A program made the position numbers and the translations under genes. From Pseudomonadota bacterium (GTDB lineage: Bacteria; Bdellovibrionota; Bacteriovoracia; Bacteriovoracales; Bacteriovoracaceae): a stretch of 35,144 nucleotides of DNA. The stretch is from positions 1 through 35,144 of the forward strand of contig JAJTIF010000184.1 of NCBI GenBank assembly GCA_021299675.1, given 5' to 3'. Positions 6,601 through 30,794 of the stretch are shown here, one piece after another (the stretch's first letter is position 1; every line of letters starts with the position of its first letter). Under the pieces are notes generated by a model, which saw only the letters and a program-made list of their open reading frames with translations, was not told the DNA's origin and did no database searches.

Positions 6601-6933
6601 CTTTCGGGTATTCCCGATCTTGTAATACGTGAGACAAAAACTCAAATATGGGACTATAAGACGGGTCGCCGCAAGCCAGAGACAGAAAAGAAATACTGGC
6701 AGCAGCTCATGATCTATGCCTATGCGTTTTGGTCAACCAAGCTCGAAGACCTTCAGTCAGATATTTCACTAACCCTTTGTTATGTGGATGAAAAAACTCT
6801 CGTCGAGAAAGTTGTGAGTTGGGATCAAGTGAACACGGAACTTTTTAGTGTGTGGAGCAAGCTGAGTGACCTGAGTGTCGCTAACACAGAAGCCTGTGGC
6901 TACTGCCCCTATCAAGAGATTTGTCCTCGTTAA
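3667..6933 (+). CDS. addA: AddA-like UvrD/Rep superfamily-1 helicase fused to a C-terminal PD-(D/E)XK nuclease
   Basis: The SF1 motifs are present: Walker A (AGAGSGKTF), motif II (VDEFQDTS), motif III (GDPKQAIYGFRGG), motif IV (NYRS), motif V (SAHASKGLEYDHVFV) and motif VI (YVACTRAKKEL). The C-terminal nuclease shows GIPDLVI...WDYKTG and QQLMIYAY, plus Cys at MDCPRQFYY and CGYCPYQEIC. Confidence 0.85.
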   Translation: MSRSPNFEQKPAIEHLGGKLLSAGAGSGKTFVLIEHVKHLTRIWSSEWRGARSMNSLADYLAERYSTLVLMTFTRLAAGEIHVRLSDQIESLVANCPMEEKEMWLAAQESLGFLTVTTIDGFFYKLVRQGYFPGLSPETPIIMYEAKRKMILESFDLWWEKNFQRIPFDYQRDASMHRKDLSESFVKIMGDPTLRTSWLDFKIEDVAPENLHFMLKPIEGICGWNAFIRRSVEIPEEARKNKWAKMAEALNARPNPIESWADLLDWYEFCQTEVANTVHNFGKAKALVEDYFADYKEFKKSILDWGESFTHYQAHFESRIKPWLLTLKDLVVWLDESSDPGLGLTYGDLEYEVLRNLRDKSLAKRIARDFTYFIVDEFQDTSLVQYEALRLLTLDQTERLFCVGDPKQAIYGFRGGELAVFENLSKDLGEKNNLLMSTNYRSEKAVIEFNNHLFSFLLPLGNGWKGRDPFTVKMSEQSVPESADAAGGKITELNLLLPPVVQVRPELEVKKNPTWRHKDLDLFEAQAFADLIAERLRESEQTTIAVLYRKLEPSKVLIGELIKRGIGFTSQAKVPYNQDPLSGILLALLQDELAEKKGQWASYMLTGYLSVLGFSPNPELEKVCAQFRQDLQLFGISVSFSLFLERIHLSNALPEGNLQALLELMTISQNNIETIYQRLKAKAELSWSANFRFGEKAHRVIIQSAHASKGLEYDHVFVGGSFTNGKSKPDRSWAGSFPGAALWIENPLLRERRKTISFQFEQLIGTHKVFSEAKRLLYVACTRAKKELVLLRATAQNDELKLDDKSWSRALELFLSQATLVRNQKIVSFENAPEIQETSSQPFFHTNNLGMVEKLRDSARLYGIVPELSATKLNSLMDCPRQFYYKNVLKLDEELVNKWSEEESTEVAVSSSQRGSEIHLALMEAVEHNMVIPLKYVNHPYKTQIEWALGHLHLVKEKNSSAQFLCEKPMKFPFFGFMLSGIPDLVIRETKTQIWDYKTGRRKPETEKKYWQQLMIYAYAFWSTKLEDLQSDISLTLCYVDEKTLVEKVVSWDQVNTELFSVWSKLSDLSVANTEACGYCPYQEICPR

Positions 6934-7004: not shown

Positions 7005-7697
7005 ATGATGAAGATCTATTTTAATTTTATACTGCTGCTCATTTCTTTCTCTACCTTGGCTAGTGAATCATCGGTGTACGATTTTTCTTGGCTCGATAAG
7101 GATAAAGAAGTTTATGTCCTTCAAAATCGAAAATTTCGAAAAGATGGCCGGCTCTATTTTAGTGTCAATGGCATTAAGACCTTGTCCGGTGCGTTCGTTG
7201 ATTCTTACGGCGCCAGTGGGCGAGTGGGATACTTCTTCAAAGAAGACTGGGGAGTTGAATTTCTCTATTCCAAGTACACGGGTGAAGAAAATGATACGGC
7301 GAAGGGAGTAAGAGCGCAGTCCACCGTACCCTTTTATCGAAAAATGGACACGATGATGGGTGGTATTATTTGGTGGTCACCGTTCTATGCCAAGATTAAT
7401 ACCTTCAATTCAATCTTCTACTATGACTGGATGTTTGGTTTAGGTGTGGCTCAAGGCCAAACACAAGATAATAGAAATTTATTTCTACCAGGAAACCCAA
7501 GTACTCTTACCACAGAGGCAGTGACCGGTGGTGTGTGGGCCACTTCGATGCGCTTCCACCTCGATCAGGCGTGGAGTGTTCGCCTTGATCTTACTGGATT
7601 TCATTACAATGGAACCAAACAAGTCACTGCTGCTCAGAAATCAACAGACCTATTCTCAAACTACGATTTTAGCGTCGGTTTAGCTTTTGCATTTTAA
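7005..7697 (+). CDS. Small outer-membrane beta-barrel protein, GltA/GltB-like
   Basis: It has a signal peptide (MMKIYFNFILLLISFSTLASE), alternating amphipathic strands rich in Y/W/G, and a C-terminal aromatic OMP signature (...VGLAFAF). The 230-aa size and the position at the head of the TPR/FHA-TonB cluster match the Myxococcus GltA/B class. Confidence 0.6.
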   Translation: MMKIYFNFILLLISFSTLASESSVYDFSWLDKDKEVYVLQNRKFRKDGRLYFSVNGIKTLSGAFVDSYGASGRVGYFFKEDWGVEFLYSKYTGEENDTAKGVRAQSTVPFYRKMDTMMGGIIWWSPFYAKINTFNSIFYYDWMFGLGVAQGQTQDNRNLFLPGNPSTLTTEAVTGGVWATSMRFHLDQAWSVRLDLTGFHYNGTKQVTAAQKSTDLFSNYDFSVGLAFAF

Positions 7698-7712
7698 AGA
7701 AGGGAGAACAGG

Positions 7713-9119
7713 ATGTTCCACCGCTTGGCATTTTTAATAATTTTCTTAAGCCTCAATCTACAGGCCCAGTCGATCGGTAATGCCCAAAAGATTTGGGAAT
7801 CAAGCTCCGGTGCTGCGTCCTGGCGAGGGATTGTGATCAATCTTGTCCGTGCGGGCTATCCCTTTTCTGCGCTCCCTTTCATGAAGAATTATCTGATTCA
7901 AAATCGCTCTGCCATCGACAGCGAATTGGATGAGGTTTTTGAAGATCTCATCGCCGCGACAGGCATCCGCCCCTTCGAAACCCTTCCCGACAATGTTCTC
8001 GGTCAGTCTCGCTCTTCTGTGGTGAGATACATCCTCGCCAAGAAACACTTCAGGAAAGCGCGCTGGAGTCAGGCGCTGGAAGAAGTCCAGAGAGTGAACG
8101 CCAACCATTCCATCTACCCTTATGCGGTTCATTTGAAAGCGGCGATCCATTCCATTCAGGGTAATAACCAAGAAGCACGATCCGATTACCAAGACTGCGT
8201 CAATTACTCACGCTCACGATCAAATGGTGAGTCTAATCTCGCCAAAAGACACCAAATGCTAGCAAACCGGGACATGTGTCTGGCGGGCCTAGCGCGAACG
8301 GCGTTTAATATCAAAGACCACGCAGCAGCTGATCTTCTCTATCTTGATATTCCCAAGTCCTCACCCGTGTGGCCCACGATCTTGTTCGAAGAAGCGTGGA
8401 ACAGCTATTACTTGAATAATTATAATCGGACCCTCGGTAAACTGGTGTCCTATAAAGCGCCTGTCTTTGATTTTATCTTTAATCCTGAAATTGAAATCCT
8501 TAAGGCCCTGAGCTACCTCAAGCTCTGCCTCTATAATGATGTGAATAAGACAGCGGAAGACTTCTTCTCGAAGAACATGGCGCCGGCAAAATCCCTGCGC
8601 CAATTCATTGTGTCTCACGGCAGTGACTACAACTACTACTACAAGCTTGCGACCTCTTATGAGCAAAACAAAGTCGCTAAAGATCTGCTCGTCCAAAATA
8701 TCCTCCAAAGCATCGTCAAGGACCAAGCCTGGATTGAGATGCGCGCGGCCTATCTTCAGGCGATGCTGGAATTTGGTAAAATCCGTGACTCGGGTTCGAG
8801 TCGCTTTAACATTGCTCTGATGACCAATATTAAAGAGGTGGTTGGCCACTATCAGATTCTTCTTGGCAGCTACGCTCAGTCTCAGTTCCAAGAAAAGTAC
8901 AACCAGCTCTCTACCTCATTACAAGATATGAGTTTCATTAAGCTCGAGGTGCTTTCACGCAAAAAGCAGTCGCTCTATGAATCAAAGAGCCTTGAAGGTA
9001 AGCGTGGCGACATAAAATACATTGATCGCAACGAAAAACAGTATTTCTGGGATTTTGACGGTGAGTTCTGGGCGGACGAGCTTGGAGACTACGTTTTTGC
9101 ATTGGGGTCTGAATGCTAA
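7713..9119 (+). CDS. Secreted helical-repeat (TPR-like) protein in the position of gltC
   Basis: It has a signal peptide (MFHRLAFLIIFLSLNLQAQS) and TPR-like helices (e.g. YAVHLKAAIHSIQGNNQEARSDYQDCV). Its stop overlaps the next gene's start (ATGCTAA, 9113-9119). The GltC assignment rests on position and composition only. Confidence 0.5.
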   Translation: MFHRLAFLIIFLSLNLQAQSIGNAQKIWESSSGAASWRGIVINLVRAGYPFSALPFMKNYLIQNRSAIDSELDEVFEDLIAATGIRPFETLPDNVLGQSRSSVVRYILAKKHFRKARWSQALEEVQRVNANHSIYPYAVHLKAAIHSIQGNNQEARSDYQDCVNYSRSRSNGESNLAKRHQMLANRDMCLAGLARTAFNIKDHAAADLLYLDIPKSSPVWPTILFEEAWNSYYLNNYNRTLGKLVSYKAPVFDFIFNPEIEILKALSYLKLCLYNDVNKTAEDFFSKNMAPAKSLRQFIVSHGSDYNYYYKLATSYEQNKVAKDLLVQNILQSIVKDQAWIEMRAAYLQAMLEFGKIRDSGSSRFNIALMTNIKEVVGHYQILLGSYAQSQFQEKYNQLSTSLQDMSFIKLEVLSRKKQSLYESKSLEGKRGDIKYIDRNEKQYFWDFDGEFWADELGDYVFALGSEC

Positions 9120-11983
9120 GATATTTATTCTATCTCCTTCTTCTTCTAAGTGCCGTTTCAGCCTTTGCCCTCGACGAGCGCCGGGCCCGTATTATTGCGG
9201 TCATCAACGAAGAACTCGCAGAAGTAACTCGACTGTCGCAGCAGAGAAATAACCGAGACCCCGAGCTCTTGCTCCGGGTGGCAGAACTCCACTTGGAGAA
9301 AGCACGCCTGACGAGAGAAGACGAAAATGAAAAATTTCTTGAGCTTCCCGTAGAGAAGAGAAGAACGGTTAACGAAAACCAATACTATGCTGGTTCGACA
9401 CGAAGCTTTCAGAATGCCAACCAGTATGCGACAGCGGTGACAAAATCTTTCCCAAGTTATCGTGACATTGCTGATGTTTACTACATTCTTGCCTTCAATG
9501 CCCGTGAACTGAAGAACTACAAAGACTCTGACAAGTATTTTGCACTCGCGCGCAAGAAAGCTCCTAAGGGCAGTAAGACAGAGAAAAAAGCTAAGCTGGC
9601 CCTCGCTGATTCATACTTTAATAAAGCCAAATTCTCAAAGGCCATCCCTCTTTACGAGTCGGCGTTGTCTGGACTCAATGAGTCCTGGTGGACCAAAGAT
9701 GCCTTTAATCTCGCTTGGTCATACTACCGAGTGAAAAATTACAGCAAAGCCATCTCGCTGATGCATGAGATCCATAAACGCTCCGGTGATTCTAAATACA
9801 TCAATATGAAGTATTTCGTTGAGAGAGACCTCGTGAGTTTTTATGTGGATGCCAAACGCACCAATGAAGCCGTTGAATGGTATCGAGCTCAGGGCATCGA
9901 TTATTCAAGTCATCTCATTAAGATTATCAAGGTTCAAACCGCTCAGGGGAAGTTCACTCAAGCAGAGCAACTCTTAGGAGAAGCAGCTAAGATTCAGACC
10001 TCACCAGACAAGCGCATCGAGGTGCTCTTTCTGCAGTTAGAACTCTCAGATAAATATAATAAAATTCCAAGCCATCTCAAAGCAGCGAGTGAGCTGACGG
10101 AGGCATCTCTCAAAGGAAGACTGAACTCAGATCAGATCAAAATGCTTGATTATCAGATTTCTAAGAAAGCAGCCGAGACGCAAAAAGCCGCCGCTTCACC
10201 AATCTATAAAGATGTGAAGAAGACTCGTCTCTCTCGAACTCGCCAAGCCATCTCGTACTTTGGACTCCTGGCAAAACTTAAACCACAAGCCAAAGCTGAG
10301 CCGATATTCTTTCAAGGTGAAACCTCCTACGCCGCTGAGCAACTCTCAGAGTCTATGAGTTATTACCTACGTGCCTTCGAGGCTGGCAAAAATGAAAAGA
10401 ATAAGAAAATAACCTCTCAAGCCATGGAAGGGATGCTTGCGACTTTAGGCAACAAAGGACTTTCACCCAAACAAGCGGATCAGTTCTACGTCCCCGTCTA
10501 TACGGCCTACCTAAAGGAAGACCCCAACTCAGCACGGGCGAAGATAATCCGTCAGAAGCTCTTTAAGGTTTACATCGACCGCAAAGACTTTAAAAATGCC
10601 GAGCAGGTTCTTTCTGACTACGCGCAACTCCATCCCGATGACTTTAAGTCTCAAGAAGTCATGCTCGCAAGCTTAATGGATGATGCCCGTAGCAAAAAAG
10701 ATTTTAACCGCTTCAAAGGCTTCATCGTCCAGATCAATGAAGGTAAGTACAAAGTCTCAAAGAAGTACGGCGAAGCTTTACGCCAGATGATGACGAAGAT
10801 TCAAATTGAAGACGCGCAGAACGCCCTCGATAAAGGTGACAAGGCGTTCGCCCTGAAGAGCTATATTCGGATCTATGAAAACCCAGAAAGTACTGTGCGA
10901 GCTAAAGCGAACGCAGCCTACAACCTTGCGGCCCTCTACTACGAAGCCAATGATCTAACAGAGAGCTATAAGTGGGGAGCAGCGGCCCTTAATGAAATGA
11001 ATGATGCTGAGGTGAAACAGTTCTCCGCTTCCTTCTTGGCCATCGGGACGAATCTCTTCCTACGTCAGCGCTTCCAGCAATCAGCCGATCTTAATACCCG
11101 CACGCTGGCCAAGCTTTGCAAGCAGGGTGACGCTTCAAAAAACACAGCGTTCAAGAACGCGAGTTTTTTGTGGCTCGCCGAAGGACTCATTGAGAAAACC
11201 GAAGAAGTTATCAATATAGGAACTAAGTGCGGCATCGACATCCAAACGCTGAATGAAGTTCGCATCGAGCTCGCCAAGGAATATCAAAAACTTTCTCGCT
11301 GGGAGAGCCTAGAAGCCATTCTGCCTCCAGTGGTGGCCAGTAAGTCTCAGGCACCCCTTACAATCATCTACCTCGAGTCGCTTCGTCGAAGCTACGCAGG
11401 CCTTGGAGACTCGCAAAGAGCGATGTCACTTGGAAGCCAAATTTTAGAGATCTATAGAAGTGCTAAAGCTAAGAACCAAGACATCCCAGTTGAAGCACTC
11501 GATATCATCGCTATGGGGCTCATGCCTAAGCTTGAGCAAAAGCAGTCGCAGCTTGATTCGATTGTCCTGAATTTTCCGGAAGACACATTCAACAACCAGG
11601 TTAAACGAAAACTATCCATCCTCGATTCCCTGACGGGGGATGTGAATGAGATACAAAAAACAGGATCTGGAAAGGGAATTGTGCGTGCATATAAAATCCT
11701 GATTAATAGCTATGAGAAGTTCGCTTCTGAGTTGAGTCGCTTTACCCCTGAAGGCAAAAGCGAAGACTACGTGACGAGCTTTAAAAAAGCCATGAGCGGG
11801 GTCTGGACACCCATCCTTCAGACAGCGCTCAAACGCCGCCAGGAAGTTAAAGAATTGATTGTCTCAAACAACATTCTCTCGGACGATAACAATGAGATGC
11901 TCTCTCCCCAGGGAACAAATCTAGTGGCACAGTTTCGTCTCCAGCAGAATCTGGTCTTGATGGATCGTGGAGGTGCTCAGTGA
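9113..11983 (+). CDS. Large periplasmic TPR-repeat protein, GltD/AgmU-like
   Basis: The ORF is 956 aa with a signal peptide (MLRYLFYLLLLLSAVSAFA). It has many TPR-like units (YYILAFNARELKNYKDSDKYFALA, LADSYFNKAKFSKAIPLYESAL, NLAWSYYRVKNYSKAISLM, NLAALYYEANDLTESYKWG). It overlaps the next gene by GTGA. Confidence 0.6.
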   Translation: MLRYLFYLLLLLSAVSAFALDERRARIIAVINEELAEVTRLSQQRNNRDPELLLRVAELHLEKARLTREDENEKFLELPVEKRRTVNENQYYAGSTRSFQNANQYATAVTKSFPSYRDIADVYYILAFNARELKNYKDSDKYFALARKKAPKGSKTEKKAKLALADSYFNKAKFSKAIPLYESALSGLNESWWTKDAFNLAWSYYRVKNYSKAISLMHEIHKRSGDSKYINMKYFVERDLVSFYVDAKRTNEAVEWYRAQGIDYSSHLIKIIKVQTAQGKFTQAEQLLGEAAKIQTSPDKRIEVLFLQLELSDKYNKIPSHLKAASELTEASLKGRLNSDQIKMLDYQISKKAAETQKAAASPIYKDVKKTRLSRTRQAISYFGLLAKLKPQAKAEPIFFQGETSYAAEQLSESMSYYLRAFEAGKNEKNKKITSQAMEGMLATLGNKGLSPKQADQFYVPVYTAYLKEDPNSARAKIIRQKLFKVYIDRKDFKNAEQVLSDYAQLHPDDFKSQEVMLASLMDDARSKKDFNRFKGFIVQINEGKYKVSKKYGEALRQMMTKIQIEDAQNALDKGDKAFALKSYIRIYENPESTVRAKANAAYNLAALYYEANDLTESYKWGAAALNEMNDAEVKQFSASFLAIGTNLFLRQRFQQSADLNTRTLAKLCKQGDASKNTAFKNASFLWLAEGLIEKTEEVINIGTKCGIDIQTLNEVRIELAKEYQKLSRWESLEAILPPVVASKSQAPLTIIYLESLRRSYAGLGDSQRAMSLGSQILEIYRSAKAKNQDIPVEALDIIAMGLMPKLEQKQSQLDSIVLNFPEDTFNNQVKRKLSILDSLTGDVNEIQKTGSGKGIVRAYKILINSYEKFASELSRFTPEGKSEDYVTSFKKAMSGVWTPILQTALKRRQEVKELIVSNNILSDDNNEMLSPQGTNLVAQFRLQQNLVLMDRGGAQ

Positions 11984-12867
11984 AAGCTATTCCCCTAATG
12001 ATATTAGTCACACTTGGTAGTTGTGGATCAAATTCAAAGAAGTCTGAAAGCACGGATCCTGCTGCCGGCGTTAAGCTTTCGAACCAAGACTTTAAGAAAT
12101 CTAAGCCGGTTGCCTACACACCCACACAAGATAGATACTCTGTGCAAGGGGGGAGTGCTCTGGGCTCAGAGACACTCTCGCAGCTTGATTCAAAAACAAT
12201 GGGTCAAGTGGCTACTGATAAAGATCCTATGTCAGTGATGATGGCGCAGTGTTACCGTGGAGACTTTGAGAGCGCACTTAAGATCGCAGATAGTATTTTT
12301 AACTCCTTTCAAAAGCACCCCTCCTACTGGAACCAACTAGGATCTTGCCACCTCCTAAAGGGCAATGAGCGCAAGGCCCTTCTTTTTTATAACAAAAGTC
12401 TCGAGGTTAAAGCTAACTACGCGCCTGCCCTGAACAACATTGGTGTCATTTACAAGCGAAACGGGCAAGACCAAAAGGCCCACGTGGCTTTTGACAAAGC
12501 CAGCAAGAGCAGTCGATTTTCTAAAACCCCACGCTACAACCTAGCTTATCTCTATCTCCATAATGGGATCGCCGAAAAAGCTTTTACTCTTTTCTCAAGC
12601 CTCTTAAGTGAAAATCCCTCTGAAATTGAAGTCCTGATTGGTGCCGCCAATAGCAGTGCTTTGACGGGCCGTTGGGCACAGGCGCTTGAACTTTTCATGA
12701 GAGTACCGGATCAATACCGTTCACGCAGTGACGTGGGACTTAACATGTCGCTTGCGGCTTATCAGATGAATAAGAGAGATGTAGCACGACAGATTCTTTC
12801 GAACACCAAGGTTTCAGATGTTGATCGTGGGTATTTTGCACAGCTTAGTAAGGTAATAGGAGAATAG
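11980..12867 (+). CDS. TPR-repeat lipoprotein, GltE/AglT-like
   Basis: It starts at a GTG within the upstream stop. It has a lipobox (LVTLGS-C) and canonical TPRs (WNQLGSCHLLKGNERKALLFYNKSLEVKANYAPALNNIGVIYKRNGQDQKAHVAFDKA). Confidence 0.6.
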   Translation: MKAIPLMILVTLGSCGSNSKKSESTDPAAGVKLSNQDFKKSKPVAYTPTQDRYSVQGGSALGSETLSQLDSKTMGQVATDKDPMSVMMAQCYRGDFESALKIADSIFNSFQKHPSYWNQLGSCHLLKGNERKALLFYNKSLEVKANYAPALNNIGVIYKRNGQDQKAHVAFDKASKSSRFSKTPRYNLAYLYLHNGIAEKAFTLFSSLLSENPSEIEVLIGAANSSALTGRWAQALELFMRVPDQYRSRSDVGLNMSLAAYQMNKRDVARQILSNTKVSDVDRGYFAQLSKVIGE

Positions 12868-12869
12868 AT

Positions 12870-13118
12870 ATGAGGTTATTTATCATACTTGCCCTTCTTT
12901 CATTTTCTGTGTTCGCTCAGAAAAGCTCTAAGAGCGTAAACTACGAATATAAAAAATTCGAAAGATTCGATTTCGAAGAAATTGGCGTAGAGGGTGAGTC
13001 GGGAGCTCCTGGGGATCTTTCGATCGCTCCGGCACCTCGAAAGAACTACGGGAATCGTCTTCCAGAAAGAAAAAGTTTTAATAAAGAAGTAAGAAAGTCC
13101 GCTAGCGGAATTAGATAA
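12870..13118 (+). CDS. Small secreted protein, GltF-like by size and position
   Basis: The ORF is 82 aa with a signal peptide (MRLFIILALLSFSVFAQ). It starts 2 nt after the upstream stop and sits between the TPR lipoprotein and the FHA-TonB-like gene. I recognised no motif. Confidence 0.45.
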   Translation: MRLFIILALLSFSVFAQKSSKSVNYEYKKFERFDFEEIGVEGESGAPGDLSIAPAPRKNYGNRLPERKSFNKEVRKSASGIR

Positions 13119-13132
13119 AAAAGGATTTTTGA

Positions 13133-15157
13133 GTGGAAACCCAAAAAAACACAGCCAAGCTTCTCTTTAGGATTAAGCCTAAGACTCCGCAATTGAAAGT
13201 GCGGGGAGATGTGATCGGCGAGGGCCGTCTTCTGGTTGGCCGAGCAGAGTCTTGTGACATCATTCTCGACTACGATTCTGTCTCTGCGGTCCATGCAGTC
13301 ATCGAAGTGCATGAGAACAGTGCAAAGATCTATGATATGAACTCAACCAATGGTACATGGGTAGGAGGCAAGCGAGTCATCGTTTCAGACCTAAAACCGG
13401 GAGATACCTTTAGCTTAGCTGACATTGACCTTAGTTTCCTCGCGTATCGCTCCGAGGACACACTCCCGCCAGTACTTGAGTCACTCGAGCCTGCGAAGGG
13501 AACAGCTTCCACCAAAGTTGTTAGGACTCCTGATCTCCCCGAGATTCCCAAGAATCTCCCTAAGACAGCACCGAAAGTAGAAAAGTCCGATGCACCTTAT
13601 GTTATGTATCCACTTGCTTCGGATCCTAAAGCTGATAGTACCGAGTATATCTTTGAGGACCTGGCAACGATCTATCCGATTTTTAAATACGATACCTCTA
13701 AGCAGGCCGTTGAAATTATTATTCTTTTTAAAGACCGCGTTTATTCTGTCGACTACCTTCCTTCAAAGGATGGGATCTATCACTTGGCGGGGTATAACCC
13801 AGGCGCAAGTGATTTAGAGTTTCCTTATCTAGGGAAAAAGGAAAAGCAGCACTTCGTGGACGTGAAGGGTGGACAGGTCTCGGTCCATAAACTTCCGGGC
13901 TATGAGATATTCTATCTTTCCGAGAATCAATCGAAGTCGGTCAATCAGGGCATCGGTATCATCGACTTGAAGCCTAAAGATATCCTGCGCTTTAGTAATA
14001 GTGATATTCAAATTTATCTGAGAAACGTTGAAGCTCCACCAAAGGTGGCAACGGCTCCAATCATTCGCCGTGATCCTGTACTGCGCAAATATCTTTGGAT
14101 GTTTTTTATCATTTTGACTGCCTTCAGTAGTGCGATCCAGTTTGCGAACTTCGAAGAAGAGAAGAAAGAGGAAGTGGAAAAGGCACCGGAGCGCCTAGCA
14201 ACGATTCTCTATAAGCAGAAGCTGATGGTGAACACAAATAAAGCAGCAGAGAAGACAGAAGATAAAAAACCTGAGCAGCAAAAAGCTCCACCGAAAGTCG
14301 CCGTGGAAAAAGCGGAGCCGACTCCGACGAAAGAAGAGATTAAAAAGCCAGATATTCAAACCACAGCTGTGCAAAATCAGAAGCCCGATCCAGGCACCAA
14401 AACAGCAACCGAGAAGAAGGTTATTGTTAAGGGTGACCCGAAGATTAATAAGCCTGACCCTACAAAAGCTGGTGGCAGTAAGCCATCACCTGTGAAAACT
14501 CAGACGGCACAGCCTGCCCAAACGAGAGCAGCTGTGACGGCCAAAACTAATGGCCCCGTGGATGTCTACAAGTCTGCAGACTTCTCAAGTTCGGTTAATA
14601 CTATGCTCGCCAAAGGGGGCTCGCTCTCAAGTGCCTCAACTGCTAGTGCCACTGGCTCAAGTTCAGATTTTGGTTCTGTTGTGGCCACTGGAGCCGGCAC
14701 GGGCACATCTCTACAGCGGGCGGCAGTTACCACTGGTGGCGGTAGTCTAACGGGAGCAACGACAGGAACTTTGGGAACCTCAAAAGGAGCTGAAGGGCTT
14801 TCCGCCAAGCGAGCGATCTACACAGCAGGTATTCCTTCGGAGACAGTGGTCTTAGGCTCCATGGATCCTGATGTGATTAGAAGAATCCTGATGGATAACC
14901 TTCCAAAGTTTCGTTACTGCTATCAGTCCGAGCTTGAAAGATCTGGGGCTGATGCACAAGGTGTGATCCGTCTTAACTTTGTGATCGGAGCTTCTGGGCA
15001 CGTTTCACAAGCCGGGGTTGATGAAGCCTCGAACTTACCAGTGCCCGTCAAACGATGTGTGGTGAACGTGCTTAAGGGGATTCAGTTCCCAGAGCCTCGA
15101 GGCGGGGGCAGTGTAGAAGTGAAACAGCCCATGAACTTCTACCCAAAGAAACTCTAG
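13133..15157 (+). CDS. FHA domain - TM helix - Pro/Lys/Glu-rich spacer - TonB-C-like (AgmX/PglI-type tail) protein, GltG/PglI-like
   Basis: It starts at GTG. The N-terminal FHA signature is GRAESCDIILDYDSVSAVHAVI...NSTNGTWVGGKRV. A single TM helix follows (YLWMFFIILTAFSSAIQF), then a KPE-rich and an S/T/G-rich low-complexity spacer. The C-terminal domain has paired Cys (LPKFRYCYQSEL ... VKRCVVNVLKGIQFPEP...VKQPMNF), typical of the AgmX/PglI tail. Confidence 0.7.
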   Translation: METQKNTAKLLFRIKPKTPQLKVRGDVIGEGRLLVGRAESCDIILDYDSVSAVHAVIEVHENSAKIYDMNSTNGTWVGGKRVIVSDLKPGDTFSLADIDLSFLAYRSEDTLPPVLESLEPAKGTASTKVVRTPDLPEIPKNLPKTAPKVEKSDAPYVMYPLASDPKADSTEYIFEDLATIYPIFKYDTSKQAVEIIILFKDRVYSVDYLPSKDGIYHLAGYNPGASDLEFPYLGKKEKQHFVDVKGGQVSVHKLPGYEIFYLSENQSKSVNQGIGIIDLKPKDILRFSNSDIQIYLRNVEAPPKVATAPIIRRDPVLRKYLWMFFIILTAFSSAIQFANFEEEKKEEVEKAPERLATILYKQKLMVNTNKAAEKTEDKKPEQQKAPPKVAVEKAEPTPTKEEIKKPDIQTTAVQNQKPDPGTKTATEKKVIVKGDPKINKPDPTKAGGSKPSPVKTQTAQPAQTRAAVTAKTNGPVDVYKSADFSSSVNTMLAKGGSLSSASTASATGSSSDFGSVVATGAGTGTSLQRAAVTTGGGSLTGATTGTLGTSKGAEGLSAKRAIYTAGIPSETVVLGSMDPDVIRRILMDNLPKFRYCYQSELERSGADAQGVIRLNFVIGASGHVSQAGVDEASNLPVPVKRCVVNVLKGIQFPEPRGGGSVEVKQPMNFYPKKL

Positions 15158-15176
15158 GAATAGAAAAAAGAGACAT

Positions 15177-15205
15177 AAAAAAAGGCGCTTTAAGCGCCTT
15201 TTTTT
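15177..15205. terminator. Bidirectional intrinsic terminator shared by the convergent operons
   Basis: The 29-nt sequence is a perfect palindrome: A7-GGCGCTT-T-AAGCGCC-T7. It lies between the stop at 15155-15157 (+) and the stop at 15204-15206 (-). The T-run overlaps the minus-strand stop codon. Confidence 0.8.
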
Positions 15206-15713
15206 ATTTGTCTGTCATGACAACAAATTTGAATTCTTTAAAGCCCGCATCGGCGCAAGTGTACATGATCCTCTTAACGTAACTGTACTTAAGGGTTTTA
15301 TCGACAACGAGATTCGCAATCCCACTAAACTTATTCGCATCAGGAGAAGATTTCTCTGAACGCTTGATCGTCTCTTTCAGCCTCACAAGTTCGTTATAAA
15401 GAGAAATGATTCGTCTTCCACCGGAATCGTAAATGTTTTCTGGAAGCGCTTCCGTGTTGAGAACTTCTTTGTCGTCGACCCAGATCTTACTTGCGGAGAC
15501 CTGAATGTTCACACCGAAGGTATTGATCGATTCAGTGCTTGAGCGTGGAAGCGTGATCCCTTCTGGAACGTTGATGATGACACCTGAGGCATTGTAGCTT
15601 TGGATCAAGAACACGAGTAGGATCGTTAAGATATCTAACAAAGAGGTGATATCAATTTCGAAAGTCTTTTTGAGTCGACGTCTTCCGTGGGCTTTAAGTC
15701 TTCTGGATCCCAT
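15204..15713 (-). CDS. ExbD/TolR-family motor subunit, AglQ/AglS-like
   Basis: It has a basic N-terminus and a single TM helix with the conserved protonatable Asp (EIDITSLLDILTILLVFLI). It is the third gene of a MotA/TolQ-type operon. Confidence 0.75.
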   Translation of the reverse strand: MGSRRLKAHGRRRLKKTFEIDITSLLDILTILLVFLIQSYNASGVIINVPEGITLPRSSTESINTFGVNIQVSASKIWVDDKEVLNTEALPENIYDSGGRRIISLYNELVRLKETIKRSEKSSPDANKFSGIANLVVDKTLKYSYVKRIMYTCADAGFKEFKFVVMTDK

Positions 15714-15716
15714 AAG

Positions 15717-16244
15717 TTAGCTCATTAGGTTGCCAAAAATGATCTTGGCGAAAAGAGTTTTTACTTTCTGTTCGATGCCGTCTTTGTCTTTTTTGAAGAT
15801 CGCTTCATCTGTGTTCTTGATCAGCCTCACAGTATCCATGATTTTGATGATCTCATCGTAGCTAATGTCCCACTCGGGTTGAAGAATAATGCTTTCTTCA
15901 TCAAGATTTGATTTCTTAATTTCCACAAGCTTCTGGTGAAGAGCATCTAGCTCATACAGACCATCGGGCGCACGATTAAAGCGTCCCACGACTCGTGGAT
16001 TAACCCCGGCGAGCAGTGTAAGCCCTTTCTCTTCGATCTTTAATTGAAGGACAAGTGGATCTTTATCTTTCTTTGGAGGTTCGGTCTCGGAAACTATCGG
16101 TATGTCGGAGCCGATTTCCATGACCTGAAGAAACTGGGCGGACATCAGAAGAAAGAAAATGAAAATGAAAACCGCGTCCATGATCGGTACGAGATTTAGT
16201 TTCTCATCGGGCTTCTTCTTGCGTCGGCTACTAGGTGTTTTCAC
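15717..16244 (-). CDS. ExbD/TolR-family motor subunit, AglQ/AglS-like
   Basis: It starts at GTG, 5 nt after the upstream stop. It has a basic N-terminus and a TM helix with the conserved Asp (LNLVPIMDAVFIFIFFLLM). Confidence 0.75.
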   Translation of the reverse strand: MKTPSSRRKKKPDEKLNLVPIMDAVFIFIFFLLMSAQFLQVMEIGSDIPIVSETEPPKKDKDPLVLQLKIEEKGLTLLAGVNPRVVGRFNRAPDGLYELDALHQKLVEIKKSNLDEESIILQPEWDISYDEIIKIMDTVRLIKNTDEAIFKKDKDGIEQKVKTLFAKIIFGNLMS

Positions 16245-16249
16245 AGAGA

Positions 16250-16885
16250 TTAGTCCTCTACTTTCTTAGTCCCAATAAGATCGAGCAGCTTCACGGCGTA
16301 CTCATCGATCTCGCCCACAATCTTCTCTGCCTTAGCCGAGAGGATGGCGTGAAAGATCATGATCACGATAGCAGAGCCTAGGCCCAGTGCTGTGGTGTAC
16401 ATGGCGACCGCAATACCACTCGAGAGAACTTGAGCTTTCTGTGAAGGATCAGCGGCGGAGATGGCTGCAAATGATTGGATCAAACCTTGGATTGTTCCGA
16501 GAAGACCGAAAAGTGTTGAAAGGTTTGCTACAAGGGCGAGGTAAGGGAGTCTTTGTTCGAGCTTCGGAATCATCTCCAAGGCGCTAGCGTCGAGCGCATT
16601 CTGAATTTGTTCCGGTGACTGGTTGGATCTTTTAAGACCACTCTTTAAAACTTTTGGGAGTGCACCGTTTGATCCGGAGCATACTCTAATCGCTCCTTGT
16701 ACATCGTTAGAGAGGACGTAGCGTTGGAGTTCATTCATGAATGAAGGTCCATCGACATCCATGCTTGAGAGTTTTTTCATTCGCTCAAGAGCAACGGCAA
16801 GGCCGACTCCGAAGCACGCCAAGATGACGTACATGAAAAAACCACCATCAATAATAAACTGGATTGCTGACTGCAAAAACGACAT
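16250..16885 (-). CDS. MotA/TolQ/ExbB-family proton channel, AglR-like
   Basis: It has three TM segments and the family motif TLFGLLGTIQGLIQSF. I chose the ATG at 16885 (MSFLQSAIQF...) because a GGAAGGGG Shine-Dalgarno precedes it. The ORF track extends the frame to 16915. Confidence 0.8.
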   Translation of the reverse strand: MSFLQSAIQFIIDGGFFMYVILACFGVGLAVALERMKKLSSMDVDGPSFMNELQRYVLSNDVQGAIRVCSGSNGALPKVLKSGLKRSNQSPEQIQNALDASALEMIPKLEQRLPYLALVANLSTLFGLLGTIQGLIQSFAAISAADPSQKAQVLSSGIAVAMYTTALGLGSAIVIMIFHAILSAKAEKIVGEIDEYAVKLLDLIGTKKVED

Positions 16886-16960
16886 ATAGAGATCCCCTTC
16901 CATAGGATGAAACATTTAAGTTCTTAAAATAATTATAGTGGTTTCTGTGTAGGAACCAAG

Positions 16961-27821: not shown

Positions 27822-27860
27822 GCCACTTGGCCCGTTAATCGCTAGACTATCTTGATGAGA

Positions 27861-27886
27861 GGGGGACCGTTTTGGTCCCCCTTTTT
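27861..27886 (+). terminator. Intrinsic terminator after groEL
   Basis: The stem is GGGGGACC-GTTTT-GGTCCCCC (8 bp, GC-rich) and is followed by TTTTT. Confidence 0.85.
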
Positions 27887-28126
27887 GTTTTCTTATATTT
27901 CAGTTCGGTTTGGATATAGAGTCGTCCTCGGCCGTGGGATATCCAAAGCAGATCCAGGCGCGCGTGTCTTCAAAGCTTGTGAAGCCTAAAATAGGCTGGT
28001 TGGCTGTGTGAATACACAAGTGCTTCACTTAGCTATGAAGTCAAAAATGTCGTTGAATTACACCGATTATCTGGAGCCATGGGAGGAGAGTAATTTAAAA
28101 TTTTGATCCTCCGATAAGTCCCTAAC

Positions 28127-29518
28127 ATGGACAACAGCTCAGTGCTCGAAAAAAAGATTGATGACCTCATCACTAGGCTCGGTGGTCTCGATCGTTTGCG
28201 AGAACTCTCAAGACTCACGTCTCTTGATCATCTTGTGAACCTGCATCTGCTTAGTCACCTGACAAAGCTTGATAAGATCGAAGGCCTCAAGGAGCTAGAT
28301 AAGCTCAATTCTCTCGATTCTTTGAGCCACTTACGCCAGCTCGATAAGCTCGACAAGCTCGAAAACCTGAACCTGCTTCGAGTGGTCGACGAGATAAAGA
28401 ACTTAGAAAAACTTGATAAGCTCGACTCTCTCAAAAACCTTCATGCACTTGATCGTCTGGATGAGCTGAATAAGCTTCAGGAGCTCGACAAGCTCTCAAA
28501 TCTTGATGAGTTAAAAAATCTCACGATGCTTCAAGGACTCGATAACCTTAAGGAGCTCGAGCGATTAAATCATCTCAGCTACCTTAAAAATCTCGATCGC
28601 CTGCAGGAACTCAATCTCCTCTCAAAGCTCGATCAGCTTCAGGATCTGAAGCACTTCATGGATCAGAATAAGGACATCCTGCCCAAGTTTAAGCACCTGG
28701 ATGCGCTGGATAATCTGGCGCTTCTCGGAAAGCTCTCTGAGCTCGATAAGTTGGATCGGCTCGATGAGCTGAAACAGCTCGATAAACTTGAGTACATTTC
28801 CCATACCGCCTCTGCGCCTCCTGCATTACCCGGTGAAGGAGAGGAGCCAAAGGTTCAAGTCGTTTCCGTGCCCTATAAAAAATCCTTTTTAACCTATAGC
28901 TTCGATTTCATTCTTGATCTGGTTCGCTCTCTTGTGCTGGCTGGACTCATCATCGCCGCCCTTCAGCACCCGCAAGGAAGAAAGACTGCTCAGCAAGCGG
29001 TAAACTACCTCGGCTTCGGCGAAGGTCTCCAGGTGAATTGGGCGCTTGAAACCCTCTGGAGTTCCCCCACTGGATCGTTTGATAAACACTGGAATGATTT
29101 CCTTAAAAAGCTCGATGTCGACATCAACTTAACCCTCGAGCTCTCTTCGGGCTTGGGTCTCAAGCGAAGATACGAAAATCTTAATCAGCTTTTTGTCTAT
29201 GAGTTTGATTACGAAACAGAAAAGCTAGATGTGATTGTTAGAAAGAAGGTTCGCTCTAAGATTACTTTGGTGGAGAGTGTGTGGACCGATAATATCAATG
29301 TTGAAATCGGTCAGCTTATGCTGAAGCAAGGTGACTCACGTCAATTAGGCCTATGGAATCAACTTAAGGAGCTTGCAGTTGGTGGCCGTTGGCTTGACCT
29401 TTTAAAAGTGTCCCTGGCAGCTCCCCAGGACGAATTCGCACAAGAAGCAGCCATCATTGCTCTCACACATCTCAAACTTAATGACTCAACTGAATTGAAA
29501 CAATTCTTCGTGGAATAG
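28127..29518 (+). CDS. Membrane protein with an N-terminal Leu-X-X triplet-repeat domain, one TM helix and an unknown C-terminal domain
   Basis: The ORF is 463 aa with no signal peptide. Residues about 15-226 are period-3 leucine repeats. A Pro/Glu linker leads to a TM helix (ILDLVRSLVLAGLIIAALQ), followed by an unassigned domain of about 190 aa. No obvious Shine-Dalgarno lies next to the ATG. Confidence 0.75.
   Translation: MDNSSVLEKKIDDLITRLGGLDRLRELSRLTSLDHLVNLHLLSHLTKLDKIEGLKELDKLNSLDSLSHLRQLDKLDKLENLNLLRVVDEIKNLEKLDKLDSLKNLHALDRLDELNKLQELDKLSNLDELKNLTMLQGLDNLKELERLNHLSYLKNLDRLQELNLLSKLDQLQDLKHFMDQNKDILPKFKHLDALDNLALLGKLSELDKLDRLDELKQLDKLEYISHTASAPPALPGEGEEPKVQVVSVPYKKSFLTYSFDFILDLVRSLVLAGLIIAALQHPQGRKTAQQAVNYLGFGEGLQVNWALETLWSSPTGSFDKHWNDFLKKLDVDINLTLELSSGLGLKRRYENLNQLFVYEFDYETEKLDVIVRKKVRSKITLVESVWTDNINVEIGQLMLKQGDSRQLGLWNQLKELAVGGRWLDLLKVSLAAPQDEFAQEAAIIALTHLKLNDSTELKQFFVE
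28178..28804 (+). repeat. Coding tandem repeat: 53 plus 12 consecutive (L/I/V)-X-X codon triplets
   Basis: Nucleotides 28178-28654 encode 53 uninterrupted triplets with L (50), I (2) or V (1) at position 1. A 14-residue break follows, then 12 more triplets (28697-28804) in a shifted register. All six Leu codons are used, so the repeat is conserved at the protein level and is not a recent DNA slippage product. Confidence 0.9.
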
Positions 29519-29530
29519 GGACAGTTTTCC

Positions 29531-29554
29531 CTCCGGTGCCTTCTGGCACCGGAG
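29531..29554 (+). terminator. Strong hairpin, possible terminator or attenuator, after the repeat-protein gene
   Basis: A perfect 10-bp stem (CTCCGGTGCC / GGCACCGGAG) has a TTCT loop and starts 13 nt after the stop. There is no immediate U-tract; T-rich sequence begins about 15 nt further on. Confidence 0.45.
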
Positions 29555-29694
29555 CCACTAGGCTCATTTTGCCTTTTTCGTAGGCCCAATTACTTGAAAA
29601 ACCATCTGTGACTGCAGCACTTGCTCTTGGCCCCAGTCATGCAAAGATGAACTTATGTTTTGCTAGGATGGCAAAGCTAGCTCGGGAGTCACGG

Positions 29695-30029: not shown

Positions 30030-30794
30030 ATGGTTAAAATCATTTTCCTTCTAAGCCTCGCCCTGTGCTCTCTTTCAAGTTGGGCGTTTCGATACACGAA
30101 AGATTTTAGCGACGGCTTTTACTGGTCTTCATTGCCGATTCAGTTCATCGTCATGGACACAGACTCTCAGCGCATGAACATGATTGCGAGCATTGCCCAA
30201 GATGCTGTTTCTGATTGGCAGGAAGCACTCATCGATAATCTCTGGAACGTATCCTCCCAGCAAGGCTCACCGGTTTCTAATCGAAACATCATCCGGTGGT
30301 CTACTAATTTTGGTCAAGAGACGGGCATGTCGGAAAGTTCCACTTTAGCAGTGGCCGTTCGCTACACCGGTGGCCCCTACATCGCGCGTGGAGAGATCAT
30401 TATCAATGGCAAGCACCCTATTAATTCATTTTCTAATCAGCTAAAGACCGTTCTCGTGCATGAATTGGGACACACTCTCGGGCTTGACCACTCGGAAGTG
30501 AATGAAGCAGTGATGGCTCCCTCACTCGATCTCCACTATGACGGGCTTCACTATGATGACATTCAGGGCATGTCGAATACGGTGATGGAGACCAAGCGCC
30601 GCCAGGCGATCGGTTATGTCAGTCCGCTTTCGAGGAGTGAGACCACCCAGAGCTCGGCCATGAGCTGTGGAACCATTGATATCAGCGGTGGGGATGGGGG
30701 CAGCGGTGGAGGTCCTATGAACCTGATTTTTTCACTCGGGATTGGTCTCATGGTTATGATCTTTTCACGAACATCACGATCAAGACGAAGCTGA
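30030..30794 (+). CDS. Matrixin-like (M10 metzincin) zinc protease with a C-terminal Gly-rich/TM/basic tail
   Basis: It has a signal peptide (MVKIIFLLSLALCSLSSWA), the zinc site HELGHTLGLDHS (HExxHxxGxxH) and a Met-turn (EAVMAP). The tail is SCGTIDISGGDGGSGGGP-MNLIFSLGIGLMVMIF-SRTSRSRRS. Confidence 0.8.
   Translation: MVKIIFLLSLALCSLSSWAFRYTKDFSDGFYWSSLPIQFIVMDTDSQRMNMIASIAQDAVSDWQEALIDNLWNVSSQQGSPVSNRNIIRWSTNFGQETGMSESSTLAVAVRYTGGPYIARGEIIINGKHPINSFSNQLKTVLVHELGHTLGLDHSEVNEAVMAPSLDLHYDGLHYDDIQGMSNTVMETKRRQAIGYVSPLSRSETTQSSAMSCGTIDISGGDGGSGGGPMNLIFSLGIGLMVMIFSRTSRSRRS

Follow-up and report, generated by a model that had tools for sequence, protein, structure and literature searches.

Here we describe a gene at positions 28127–29518 (plus strand) of a 35,144-nucleotide stretch of DNA (the window; contig JAJTIF010000184.1 of assembly GCA_021299675.1, assigned to the Bacteriovoracaceae), which encodes a membrane protein with a hydrophobic residue, nearly always leucine, at every third position over more than 160 residues. 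The open reading frame (ORF) is a genuine gene that is conserved in uncultured Bacteriovoracia, its leucines are maintained by selection on the protein, and the repeat falls outside the repeat classes with which we compared it. Our tentative interpretation is that the cytoplasmic part of this bitopic inner-membrane protein self-associates into a rod of fixed length, and that the protein was ancestrally an accessory of an ion-driven stator. A repeat of this kind, with leucine at every third residue, is not described in the literature that we searched.

The ORF is complete and encodes 463 amino acids followed by a stop codon. Translation bore out the original prediction, made from this DNA alone, of 53 triplets with Leu, Ile or Val in the first position, a break, and 12 further triplets: from residue 18, the first position of the 53 consecutive triplets is occupied by Leu (50), Ile (2) or Val (1), and Asp stands at the second position in 17 of them. 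The first array begins slightly earlier and spans residues 15–176 (28169–28654, plus strand, as for all features of the gene) as 55 unbroken hydrophobic triplets. It is followed by a 14-residue "knee" (residues 177–190, FMDQNKDILPKFKH; 28655–28696), which shifts the register by +2, and by a second array of 12 triplets (residues 191–226; 28697–28804), or 14 if counted from L185. The remainder of the protein consists of a Pro/Glu-rich linker of variable length (residues 227–253; 28805–28885), over which the AlphaFold per-residue confidence score (pLDDT) is below 50, a transmembrane (TM) helix bearing the charged pair D264 and R267 (residues 254–281; 28886–28969), and a predicted all-alpha C-terminal domain with the motif LGFGxGxQVNWAL at residues 295–307 (residues 284–463; 28976–29515). 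The linker, the single hydrophobic segment, and the unassigned C-terminal domain, which measures 180 amino acids, were likewise found where they had been anticipated. Knee-like breaks also occur in the distant family members that we inspected.

Fourier analysis of the L/I/V/M indicator recovered the proposed period, with a peak at exactly 3.00 residues (power 9.4 versus a shuffle maximum of 3.2, n = 1000). All six Leu codons are present (CTC 28, CTT 16, CTG 14, TTA 4, TTG 3, CTA 1), and the only DNA arrays detected by Tandem Repeats Finder are two very short ones (25 and 46 nt); the periodicity therefore lies at the level of the protein, not of the DNA. A codon alignment of eight orthologues contains 58 invariant Leu columns with a mean of 4.2 codons per column, and TTR and CTN codons are mixed in 50 of these 58. 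Codon mixing among orthologues, together with the Tandem Repeats Finder result, rules out a DNA-level repeat or slippage as the origin of the array and upholds the earlier claim of protein-level selection without recent slippage.

In the middle of the array, column entropy is approximately 0 bits at the first triplet position and approximately 2 bits at the second and third. Repeat number, a property flagged at the outset as one that might vary among orthologues, is fixed in the first array: across relatives at 41–100% identity, every full-length member has 54 triplets, and the protein of the window (the query) and its 96%-identical relative have 55 by virtue of one additional in-frame LDK triplet. 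Apart from this triplet, we observed zero insertions or deletions across residues 15–200. The second array ranges from 12 to 19 triplets. Two blocks within the first array depart from the general pattern in that all three triplet positions are conserved: a near-invariant block at residues 18–54 (LGGLxRLRELSRLSSLDHLVNLHLLSHLTKLDKIEGL; 28178–28288) and a second at residues ~141–171 (LxELERLDHLxYLxNLDRLQELxxLxKLD; 28547–28639). We regard the former as a candidate site for partner binding or nucleation, one confined to the query clade. These two blocks excepted, the identity of the leucines and the length of the rod are conserved within the array, and little besides.

This pattern of conservation speaks to the idea that the array is a low-complexity, mostly unstructured or phase-separating region of a protein in which only the TM helix and C-terminal domain are conserved. 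Free evolution of the second and third triplet positions would fit such a region, as would the low AlphaFold confidence over the array and the fact that the gene is the most diverged of its syntenic block. Disorder is hard to reconcile, however, with a composition of 33% Leu, zero entropy at 58 positions, a fixed triplet count, and the lack of insertions or deletions over 41–100% identity, and we regard this explanation as very improbable.

Searching 5.8 billion proteins by word index yielded 93 relatives. The family comprises ~90 clusters, whose named members all derive from Bacteriovoracia metagenome-assembled genomes. A scan of one genome per species placed the gene in seven species, represented by uncultured Bacteriovoracia, Bacteriovoracaceae or Halobacteriovoraceae genomes of this type, one of them labelled only "Proteobacteria". 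The architecture recurs in independent assemblies from NCBI, JGI, ENA and Logan and is therefore no artefact of assembly. Most members carry unbroken runs of 30–76 triplets; in distant members (25–30% identity) the arrays are longer or differently segmented, and the TM helix and C-terminal domain are held in common. A hidden Markov model (HMM) of residues 284–463 built from the query clade only matches distant members with E values of 1e-8 to 1e-23 (Z = 1e6), in many cases over the full length of the model. As judged from sequence, the family is characterized by a Leu-triplet array, a Pro/Glu linker, one TM helix, and an all-alpha C-terminal domain, and it is unannotated. The original prediction had found no family in which to place the protein. 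This stands insofar as no known family matched, but the protein is not an orphan, since it belongs to a family of ~90 clusters and similar arrays occur on other domains too.

We compared the array with known repeats through scans of Pfam, NCBIfam, PHROGs and PADLOC, using the query, its halves and 78 relatives; nothing exceeded threshold, and the repeat region matched no characterized repeat family with confidence, in keeping with its claimed novelty. The query's best Pfam match, LED_rpt (PF20854), scores 11.4–14.3 bits where the gathering threshold is 59, and this model gives the one weak match that recurs in the scans. Colinear alignments to it are obtained for period-3 arrays from a number of unrelated proteins, the query among them, in every case below threshold (14–26 bits on the period-3 proteins tested), and 7 of the 78 family members match it at E ≤ 0.01. 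With no period-3 protein tested scoring above 26 bits against the required 59, we rejected membership in LED_rpt. We also set aside a PADLOC match to MTase_II (PDLC03289; E 1e-12), which covers the repeat only and reflects a Leu-x-x stretch in the model, not methyltransferase homology; model positions 181–244 align with the array of the query, and the model itself seems to contain a Leu-x-x array. Two of the 78 members, P0032 and one other, show a weak match to Pfam KwaB-like (Kiwa defence; best E 6e-6), which is probably driven by the repeat region. Literature searches on the PF20854 LED repeat, on DUF6338 and on leucine at each third residue returned nothing relevant.

The closest sequence pattern to the array is the 6–7-triplet stretch found within leucine-rich repeats (LRRs) of the SDS22/internalin type (InlA, InlK, dynein light chain 1, DRC3), which likewise place Leu at each third residue and have polar positions rich in D/N/S/K. 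NCBIfam internalin_A matches the query with an E value of 1.5e-5, at 23.5 bits versus a cutoff of 1600. PDB sequence searches using the protein, a C-terminal profile and a repeat profile produced marginal LRR, leptin and low-complexity matches only; the repeat region finds its best real match in dynein light chain 1, at an E value of 6e-4 and over an alignment with large gaps, and DRC3, dynein light chain 1 and internalin K together span E values of 6e-4 to 0.6. An exhaustive HMMER search of the array against 1.84 billion representatives gave 672 matches at E ≤ 1e-3, which fall into two classes: large LRR proteins—numbering in the hundreds—in which runs of 6–7 triplets restart every 22–24 residues, and a minority of proteins with unbroken runs of 30–95 triplets. 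The weak similarity to LRRs arises because an SDS22-type repeat holds six Leu-x-x steps before its LxL register shift.

These matches, together with the LRR-like composition of the D/N/S-rich polar positions, are what might be expected if the array were a degenerate LRR-type solenoid lacking the LxL beta-strand, in which turns or 3-10 segments would wind into a superhelix around inward-pointing leucines. However, LRRs are built on the core motif LxxLxLxx(N/C)xL, carry an LxL beta-strand and an Asn ladder in each repeat and have a super-period of 20–30 residues, and the query has neither register shift nor super-period. No LxL shift occurs in its 53 triplets, in which the sole LxL (L39-H-L41) leaves the register unchanged, and there is no Asn/Cys ladder position. 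Triplet autocorrelation of charge, Gly, D/N/S/T and extra hydrophobics is absent at lags of 2–14 triplets, which disfavours a solenoid of fixed coil length. In addition, none of the 78 family members matches a Pfam LRR model at E ≤ 0.01, and AlphaFold, which is good at LRRs, yields no solenoid here. We therefore rejected LRR membership on the lack of an LxL shift, of a 20–30-residue super-period and of any Pfam LRR match, in agreement with the earlier statement that this is no classical LRR, and we consider a degenerate solenoid improbable.

Coiled coils fare no better on geometric grounds. Alpha-helical coiled coils can access periodicities of ~3.33–3.9 residues per turn, with 3.0 listed as inaccessible, and even one stammer is enough to impose a 3-10 conformation locally (Hartmann et al., PMC4786415). 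The array, at 3.00, lies below the ~3.33 limit and well apart from the 3.5–3.67 of alpha coiled-coil rods, which excludes a canonical alpha-helical coiled coil and bears out the view that it is neither a heptad nor a hendecad repeat (PMC4786415). A hexapeptide left-handed beta-helix, also doubted in the original prediction, can be discarded as well: such repeats follow the hexad [LIV]-[GAED]-x2-[STAV]-x with small residues at i+4, whereas in the array leucines occupy hexad positions 1 and 4, and no Pfam Hexapep model matches.

Composition and charge statistics were compiled from 3423 triplets of 52 non-redundant family members. The first position is Leu in 92% of triplets. The second is dominated by D (22%), E (19%), K (13%), S (12%) and N (7%), with D/N/S/T together making up 45%, and the third by K (24%), E (15%), N (11%) and Q (10%). 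At these two positions Ala accounts for 2–3% (2% at the second), Gly for ~3% and Pro for ~1% or less. Compared with shuffles in which each triplet position kept its own composition, pairs of opposite charge are over-represented at i+1, i+2 and i+3 (z 11, 17 and 14) and under-represented at i+4 and i+5 (z −5.8 and −4.2). By contrast, our control, TolA domain II, is enriched at both i+3 (z 3.5) and i+4 (z 6.1). Net charge alternates between adjacent triplets (lag-1 autocorrelation −0.39, z −21.6), and its lag-2 autocorrelation is 0.00, indicating that triplets are equivalent and that no hexad period exists. From the invariance of the leucines, the equivalence of the triplets and the preference for i+3 over i+4 charge contacts, we infer a buried Leu core and a backbone that, with respect to this core, would turn once every three residues.

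The equivalence of triplets is also informative with respect to alpha/beta coiled coils, fibres whose repeat period, like that of the query, cannot be accommodated by alpha supercoiling (PMC4786415). In trimers, periods that are multiples of three break alpha coiled coils into beta-layers, and Hartmann et al. proposed that a hexad-based fibre should be possible while detecting no natural example (PMC4786415). The array could in principle be this minimal fibre, built of stacked beta-layers at hexad spacing. Known alpha/beta coiled coils, however, consist of nonads or isolated hexads with the consensus [aliphatic]-A-T-K-x-[DE] and 3-6 spacing (PMC4786415), and the query has 3-3 spacing and no such motif. 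The beta-layer consensus [aliphatic]-A-T-K-[polar]-[DE] at hexad or nonad spacing is absent, as is any period-6 signal, and hexads would make odd and even triplets differ, which conflicts with the lag-2 net-charge autocorrelation of 0.00 and near-zero values for other properties. There is only a slender chance that the array is of this type. By these comparisons, the array appears to lie outside the LRRs, coiled coils (by periodicity), beta-layer fibres, hexapeptide repeats and LED_rpt.

Structure prediction was of low confidence over the array. AlphaFold2 run without an alignment gave a pLDDT of 43; with a 78-sequence alignment, the array was modelled as an ordinary alpha-helix at pLDDT ~50, and DSSP assigned helix over most of residues 4–224 in both models. 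On an ordinary long alpha-helix the leucines would trace a left-handed spiral, with −60 degrees per step and a pitch of 18 residues, and would be only partly buried; the array could then act as a single stiff helix, a loose non-canonical bundle or lattice, or a multivalent binding surface. Beyond the AlphaFold models, this explanation draws on the low Gly (~3%) and Pro (~1% or less) at the second and third positions, on the frequent Lys, Glu and Gln, and on opposite charges at i+3, which are favourable in an alpha-helix too. Several observations run counter to it. Confidence stayed near 50 despite 78 aligned sequences; at a period of 3.0 no continuous hydrophobic face forms, and supercoiling cannot compensate (PMC4786415); and the ~58 invariant leucines point to burial. 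Unlike TolA, the family is depleted in the i+4 salt-bridge spacing. Helical rods, moreover, are not typically D/N/S/T-rich and Ala-poor, in contrast to the 45% D/N/S/T at the second position and 2–3% Ala seen here. On balance we think an ordinary alpha-helix somewhat unlikely.

Sequence features of the remainder of the protein indicate how it may sit in the membrane. Position 264 is acidic and position 267 basic in 76 of 78 members each, and the LGFG...QVN.AL motif that follows the TM helix is strongly conserved (G296 in 73/78, F297 in 71/78, L307 in 75/78). No signal peptide was found, as had been noted from the start, and K+R content is higher before the TM helix than after it in 43 proteins, with the reverse in 9 (n = 78); these features argue for a cytoplasmic N terminus. 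The N-terminal ~230 residues would accordingly be cytoplasmic and the C-terminal ~180 residues periplasmic. AlphaFold2 with the 78-sequence alignment predicts the C-terminal domain to be all-alpha, with pLDDT >90 over residues ~320–450. The domain has no Pfam match and no significant match in a separate profile search against PDB sequences, where hits were marginal, and a Foldseek search of the AlphaFold model against the PDB returned nothing with E <0.5; it remains unassigned, as originally stated.

Genomic context provides a possible clue to function. All eight of the distinct distant loci examined have a MotA_ExbB gene next to the family gene, or one small gene away in the case of L012, and the two are usually transcribed divergently. 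A MotB_plug/OmpA gene is present in seven of these eight loci; in the other, L018, the contig ends within the gene next to motA. These neighbours are divergent PomA/MotP-like and MotB/MotD-like proteins that score below NCBIfam cutoffs, but retain MotB Asp32, the NRR peptidoglycan-binding motif, and MotA Pro173 and Pro222. Proteins in which a similar array is joined to DUF6338 lack MotAB neighbours (loci L023 and L024), which implies that the MotAB link tracks the TM/C-terminal family and not the array.

The wider surroundings of these distant genes are also conserved. In Bacteriovoracia loci L003, L011–L016, L018 and L021, we observed a cluster composed of the divergent MotA/MotB-like pair and the Leu-x-x/TM protein, accompanied by unannotated proteins of ~355–376, 202–211 and 510–591 amino acids. 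Most loci of this type also contain, or have close by, genes for proteins of ~640–705 and ~1750–1960 amino acids whose fn3 matches are faint or weak. This cluster may represent an undescribed stator-driven envelope system.

Combining these observations, we tentatively propose the following. The rod would comprise 54–55 triplets, the 14-residue knee and a further 12–19 triplets, with leucine at each third residue as its pervasive constraint. All leucines of the array would be buried in a continuous core formed by the self-association of several chains, and such a core would need a strongly overwound or 3-10-like helical bundle, not an alpha coiled coil or an LRR solenoid. The rod might serve as a rigid spacer or scaffold, with the block at residues 18–54 as a clade-specific binding or nucleation site. 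The Asp/Lys pair of the TM helix would dock the protein to a membrane partner, and the C-terminal domain would reach into the periplasm. In most of the family the partner is probably the adjacent MotA/MotB-type ion-driven stator, of which the protein would be an accessory or output element; the query clade would have moved off the MotAB locus, and may use a stator encoded elsewhere or act alone.

A number of observations weigh against this proposal. The MotAB pair is absent from the window and from all nine loci of the query clade, whose gene may be a relocated orthologue or a paralogue of the MotAB-linked form. P0057, a MotAB-linked member, is not matched by the C-terminal domain HMM. The best assignment of a MotAB neighbour, to PomA, reaches 153 bits against a cutoff of 341, such that the pairs are unassigned. 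As to the rod itself, AlphaFold2 renders the array as ordinary alpha-helix. The charge z-scores are inflated by relatedness among family members, and the MukB arms, which are true coiled coils, show no i+4 signal either, so the charge statistic is suggestive only. Finally, we know of no long natural 3-10 helix or 3-10 bundle.

A more specific version of the proposal holds that the array is an "all-stammer" coiled coil—a 3-10-like helix bundle around a continuous Leu core—that forms the shaft of an accessory subunit of a MotAB-type motor. We think this version unlikely. If true, it would constitute a class of protein fibre so far unseen in nature; a 3-10-like cytoplasmic shaft would be ~30 nm long, and the same module would also explain the period-3 arrays on DUF6338 proteins and in a DNA methyltransferase. 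Fibrous repeat proteins belong to the folds that are understood best. Whichever explanation holds, accepted coiled-coil periodicities stop at ~3.33, and here a selected natural array has a period of exactly 3.0 over >160 residues, on which AlphaFold and all profile libraries fail. A single structure would show either that protein rods can be built in a new way or that the alpha-helix is more tolerant than expected, and either finding would be useful for protein design.

The family can be set against known envelope machines. TolA domain II and the ZorA tail of Zorya are alpha-helical coiled-coil rods on envelope machines. The array resembles them as a long, Gly/Pro-poor, membrane-anchored region that is predicted to be helical, and in most of the family its gene adjoins that of a MotA/ExbB-type 5:2 motor. 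In TolA and TonB, however, the TM helix is N-terminal and the rod periplasmic, whereas the rod of the query is N-terminal and probably cytoplasmic. MotB/ExbD/TolR, FliL, TonB and TolA share the N-in/C-out bitopic topology that the family appears to have, and stator-associated bitopic proteins resemble it further in an acidic residue within the cytoplasmic third of the TM helix and, for most of the family, in a gene next to motA/motB. These proteins nonetheless have no sequence similarity to the family, in which the Asp is paired with Lys/Arg at +3. Their cytoplasmic part measures ~20–30 residues; that of the family extends to 230–450 residues, and the family has no OmpA, TonB_C or SPFH-type periplasmic domain. 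The family also marks an undescribed conserved Bacteriovoracia cluster—a divergent MotAB pair, the Leu-x-x protein, and large proteins with faint fn3 matches—which may encode a novel envelope machine of these predatory bacteria.

The strict Leu-x-x array is a recurring, undescribed module that is not unique to this family. DUF6338 proteins, a fragment of a D12 methyltransferase and an archaeal protein also bear period-3 arrays, and arrays of the I/L/V-x-x type precede beta-rich domains. The DUF6338 (PF19865) proteins, like the query, place a strict N-terminal array on a membrane protein, but have a multi-TM membrane domain, no C-terminal domain of the query type and no MotAB neighbour; those observed (P0085–P0092, P0102 and P0122) are from Vampirovibrio and cyanobacteria and carry 39–64 Leu/Met-x-x triplets. 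P0199, of 226 amino acids, combines a D12 N6-adenine methyltransferase match with 36 Leu-x-x triplets (LESLQRLESLQS...). In P0166, P0189, P0143, P0126 and P0209, for which we found no Pfam or PHROG assignment, I/L/V-x-x arrays reach 95 triplets, often in 9-residue units (SIDLVKSIT); some precede beta-rich domains and others are flanked by such domains on both sides, and these proteins might be fibre-like.

Returning to the window, the gene lies between strong hairpins, as had been proposed. Upstream is the intrinsic terminator of groEL, a 13-bp stem followed by a T-run (27857–27885, plus strand), and directly 3' of the stop codon are three stacked hairpins followed by a U-run (29517–29577, plus strand). 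The latter likely form a terminator, implying a monocistronic unit; with terminators on both sides, the gene would be bracketed as its own transcription unit. The reported lack of an adjacent Shine-Dalgarno sequence also held, in that no AGGAG-like motif occurs within 20 nt of the ATG.

The neighbourhood of the query clade is colinear in all nine loci from groES-groEL to SBP_bac_5. After groES-groEL come 0–2 extra genes and then the target gene, which is followed by one small ORF, the gene for an M10 metalloprotease, a further two small ORFs, a methyltransferase gene, another ORF and finally SBP_bac_5; in the other species of the clade, 1–2 extra genes lie between groEL and the target. The target is the most diverged gene of this block, at 42–49% identity versus ~50–94% for the flanking genes from groES to SBP5. 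We dropped synteny with groESL as evidence of function, given that colinearity extends over the entire block between polA and the SBP gene, that a terminator separates groEL from the target, and that other species have the extra genes in between; this colinearity is a product of common descent and is little guide to function. The interval between the groEL terminator and the target is ~240 bp in the window (27886–28126) and 1.4–2.2 kb in L001, L004, L006 and L008–L010; in L001 and L002 it holds two unannotated genes, encoding proteins of 216 (minus strand) and 368 amino acids. The 368-amino-acid neighbours found upstream in L001 and downstream in L003 are not homologous, which eliminated them as a partner gene shared between clades.

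Downstream of the target, at 30030–30794, the window encodes an M10-type metalloprotease (VHELGHTLGLDH) with a Gly-rich stretch near its C terminus, followed by a hydrophobic helix and a final RSRRS. This C terminus looks like a sorting signal, and the protein weakly matches "myxosortase-dependent metalloprotease MXAN_2677/2678" (E 1e-6, far below cutoff).

Positions 7005–16915 contain a cluster resembling the gliding-motility genes of Myxococcus. It includes an outer-membrane beta-barrel protein (7005–7697), a GltC-like protein (7713–9119; NCBIfam gliding_GltC E 1.8e-34, below cutoff), two tetratricopeptide repeat proteins (9113–12867), a forkhead-associated (FHA) protein (13133–15157), and, on the minus strand, two ExbD/TolR-like genes and a TolQ-like gene that resemble AglRQS (15204–16915). 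The cluster is 11–21 kb from the target, with unrelated housekeeping genes between them. Further upstream, at 1214–6933, is an AddAB-like pair in which the gene for an 818-amino-acid PD-(D/E)XK nuclease protein overlaps that for a 1088-amino-acid UvrD-helicase/PD-(D/E)XK protein; the pair adjoins Hsp33 on the opposite strand, an ordinary housekeeping context.

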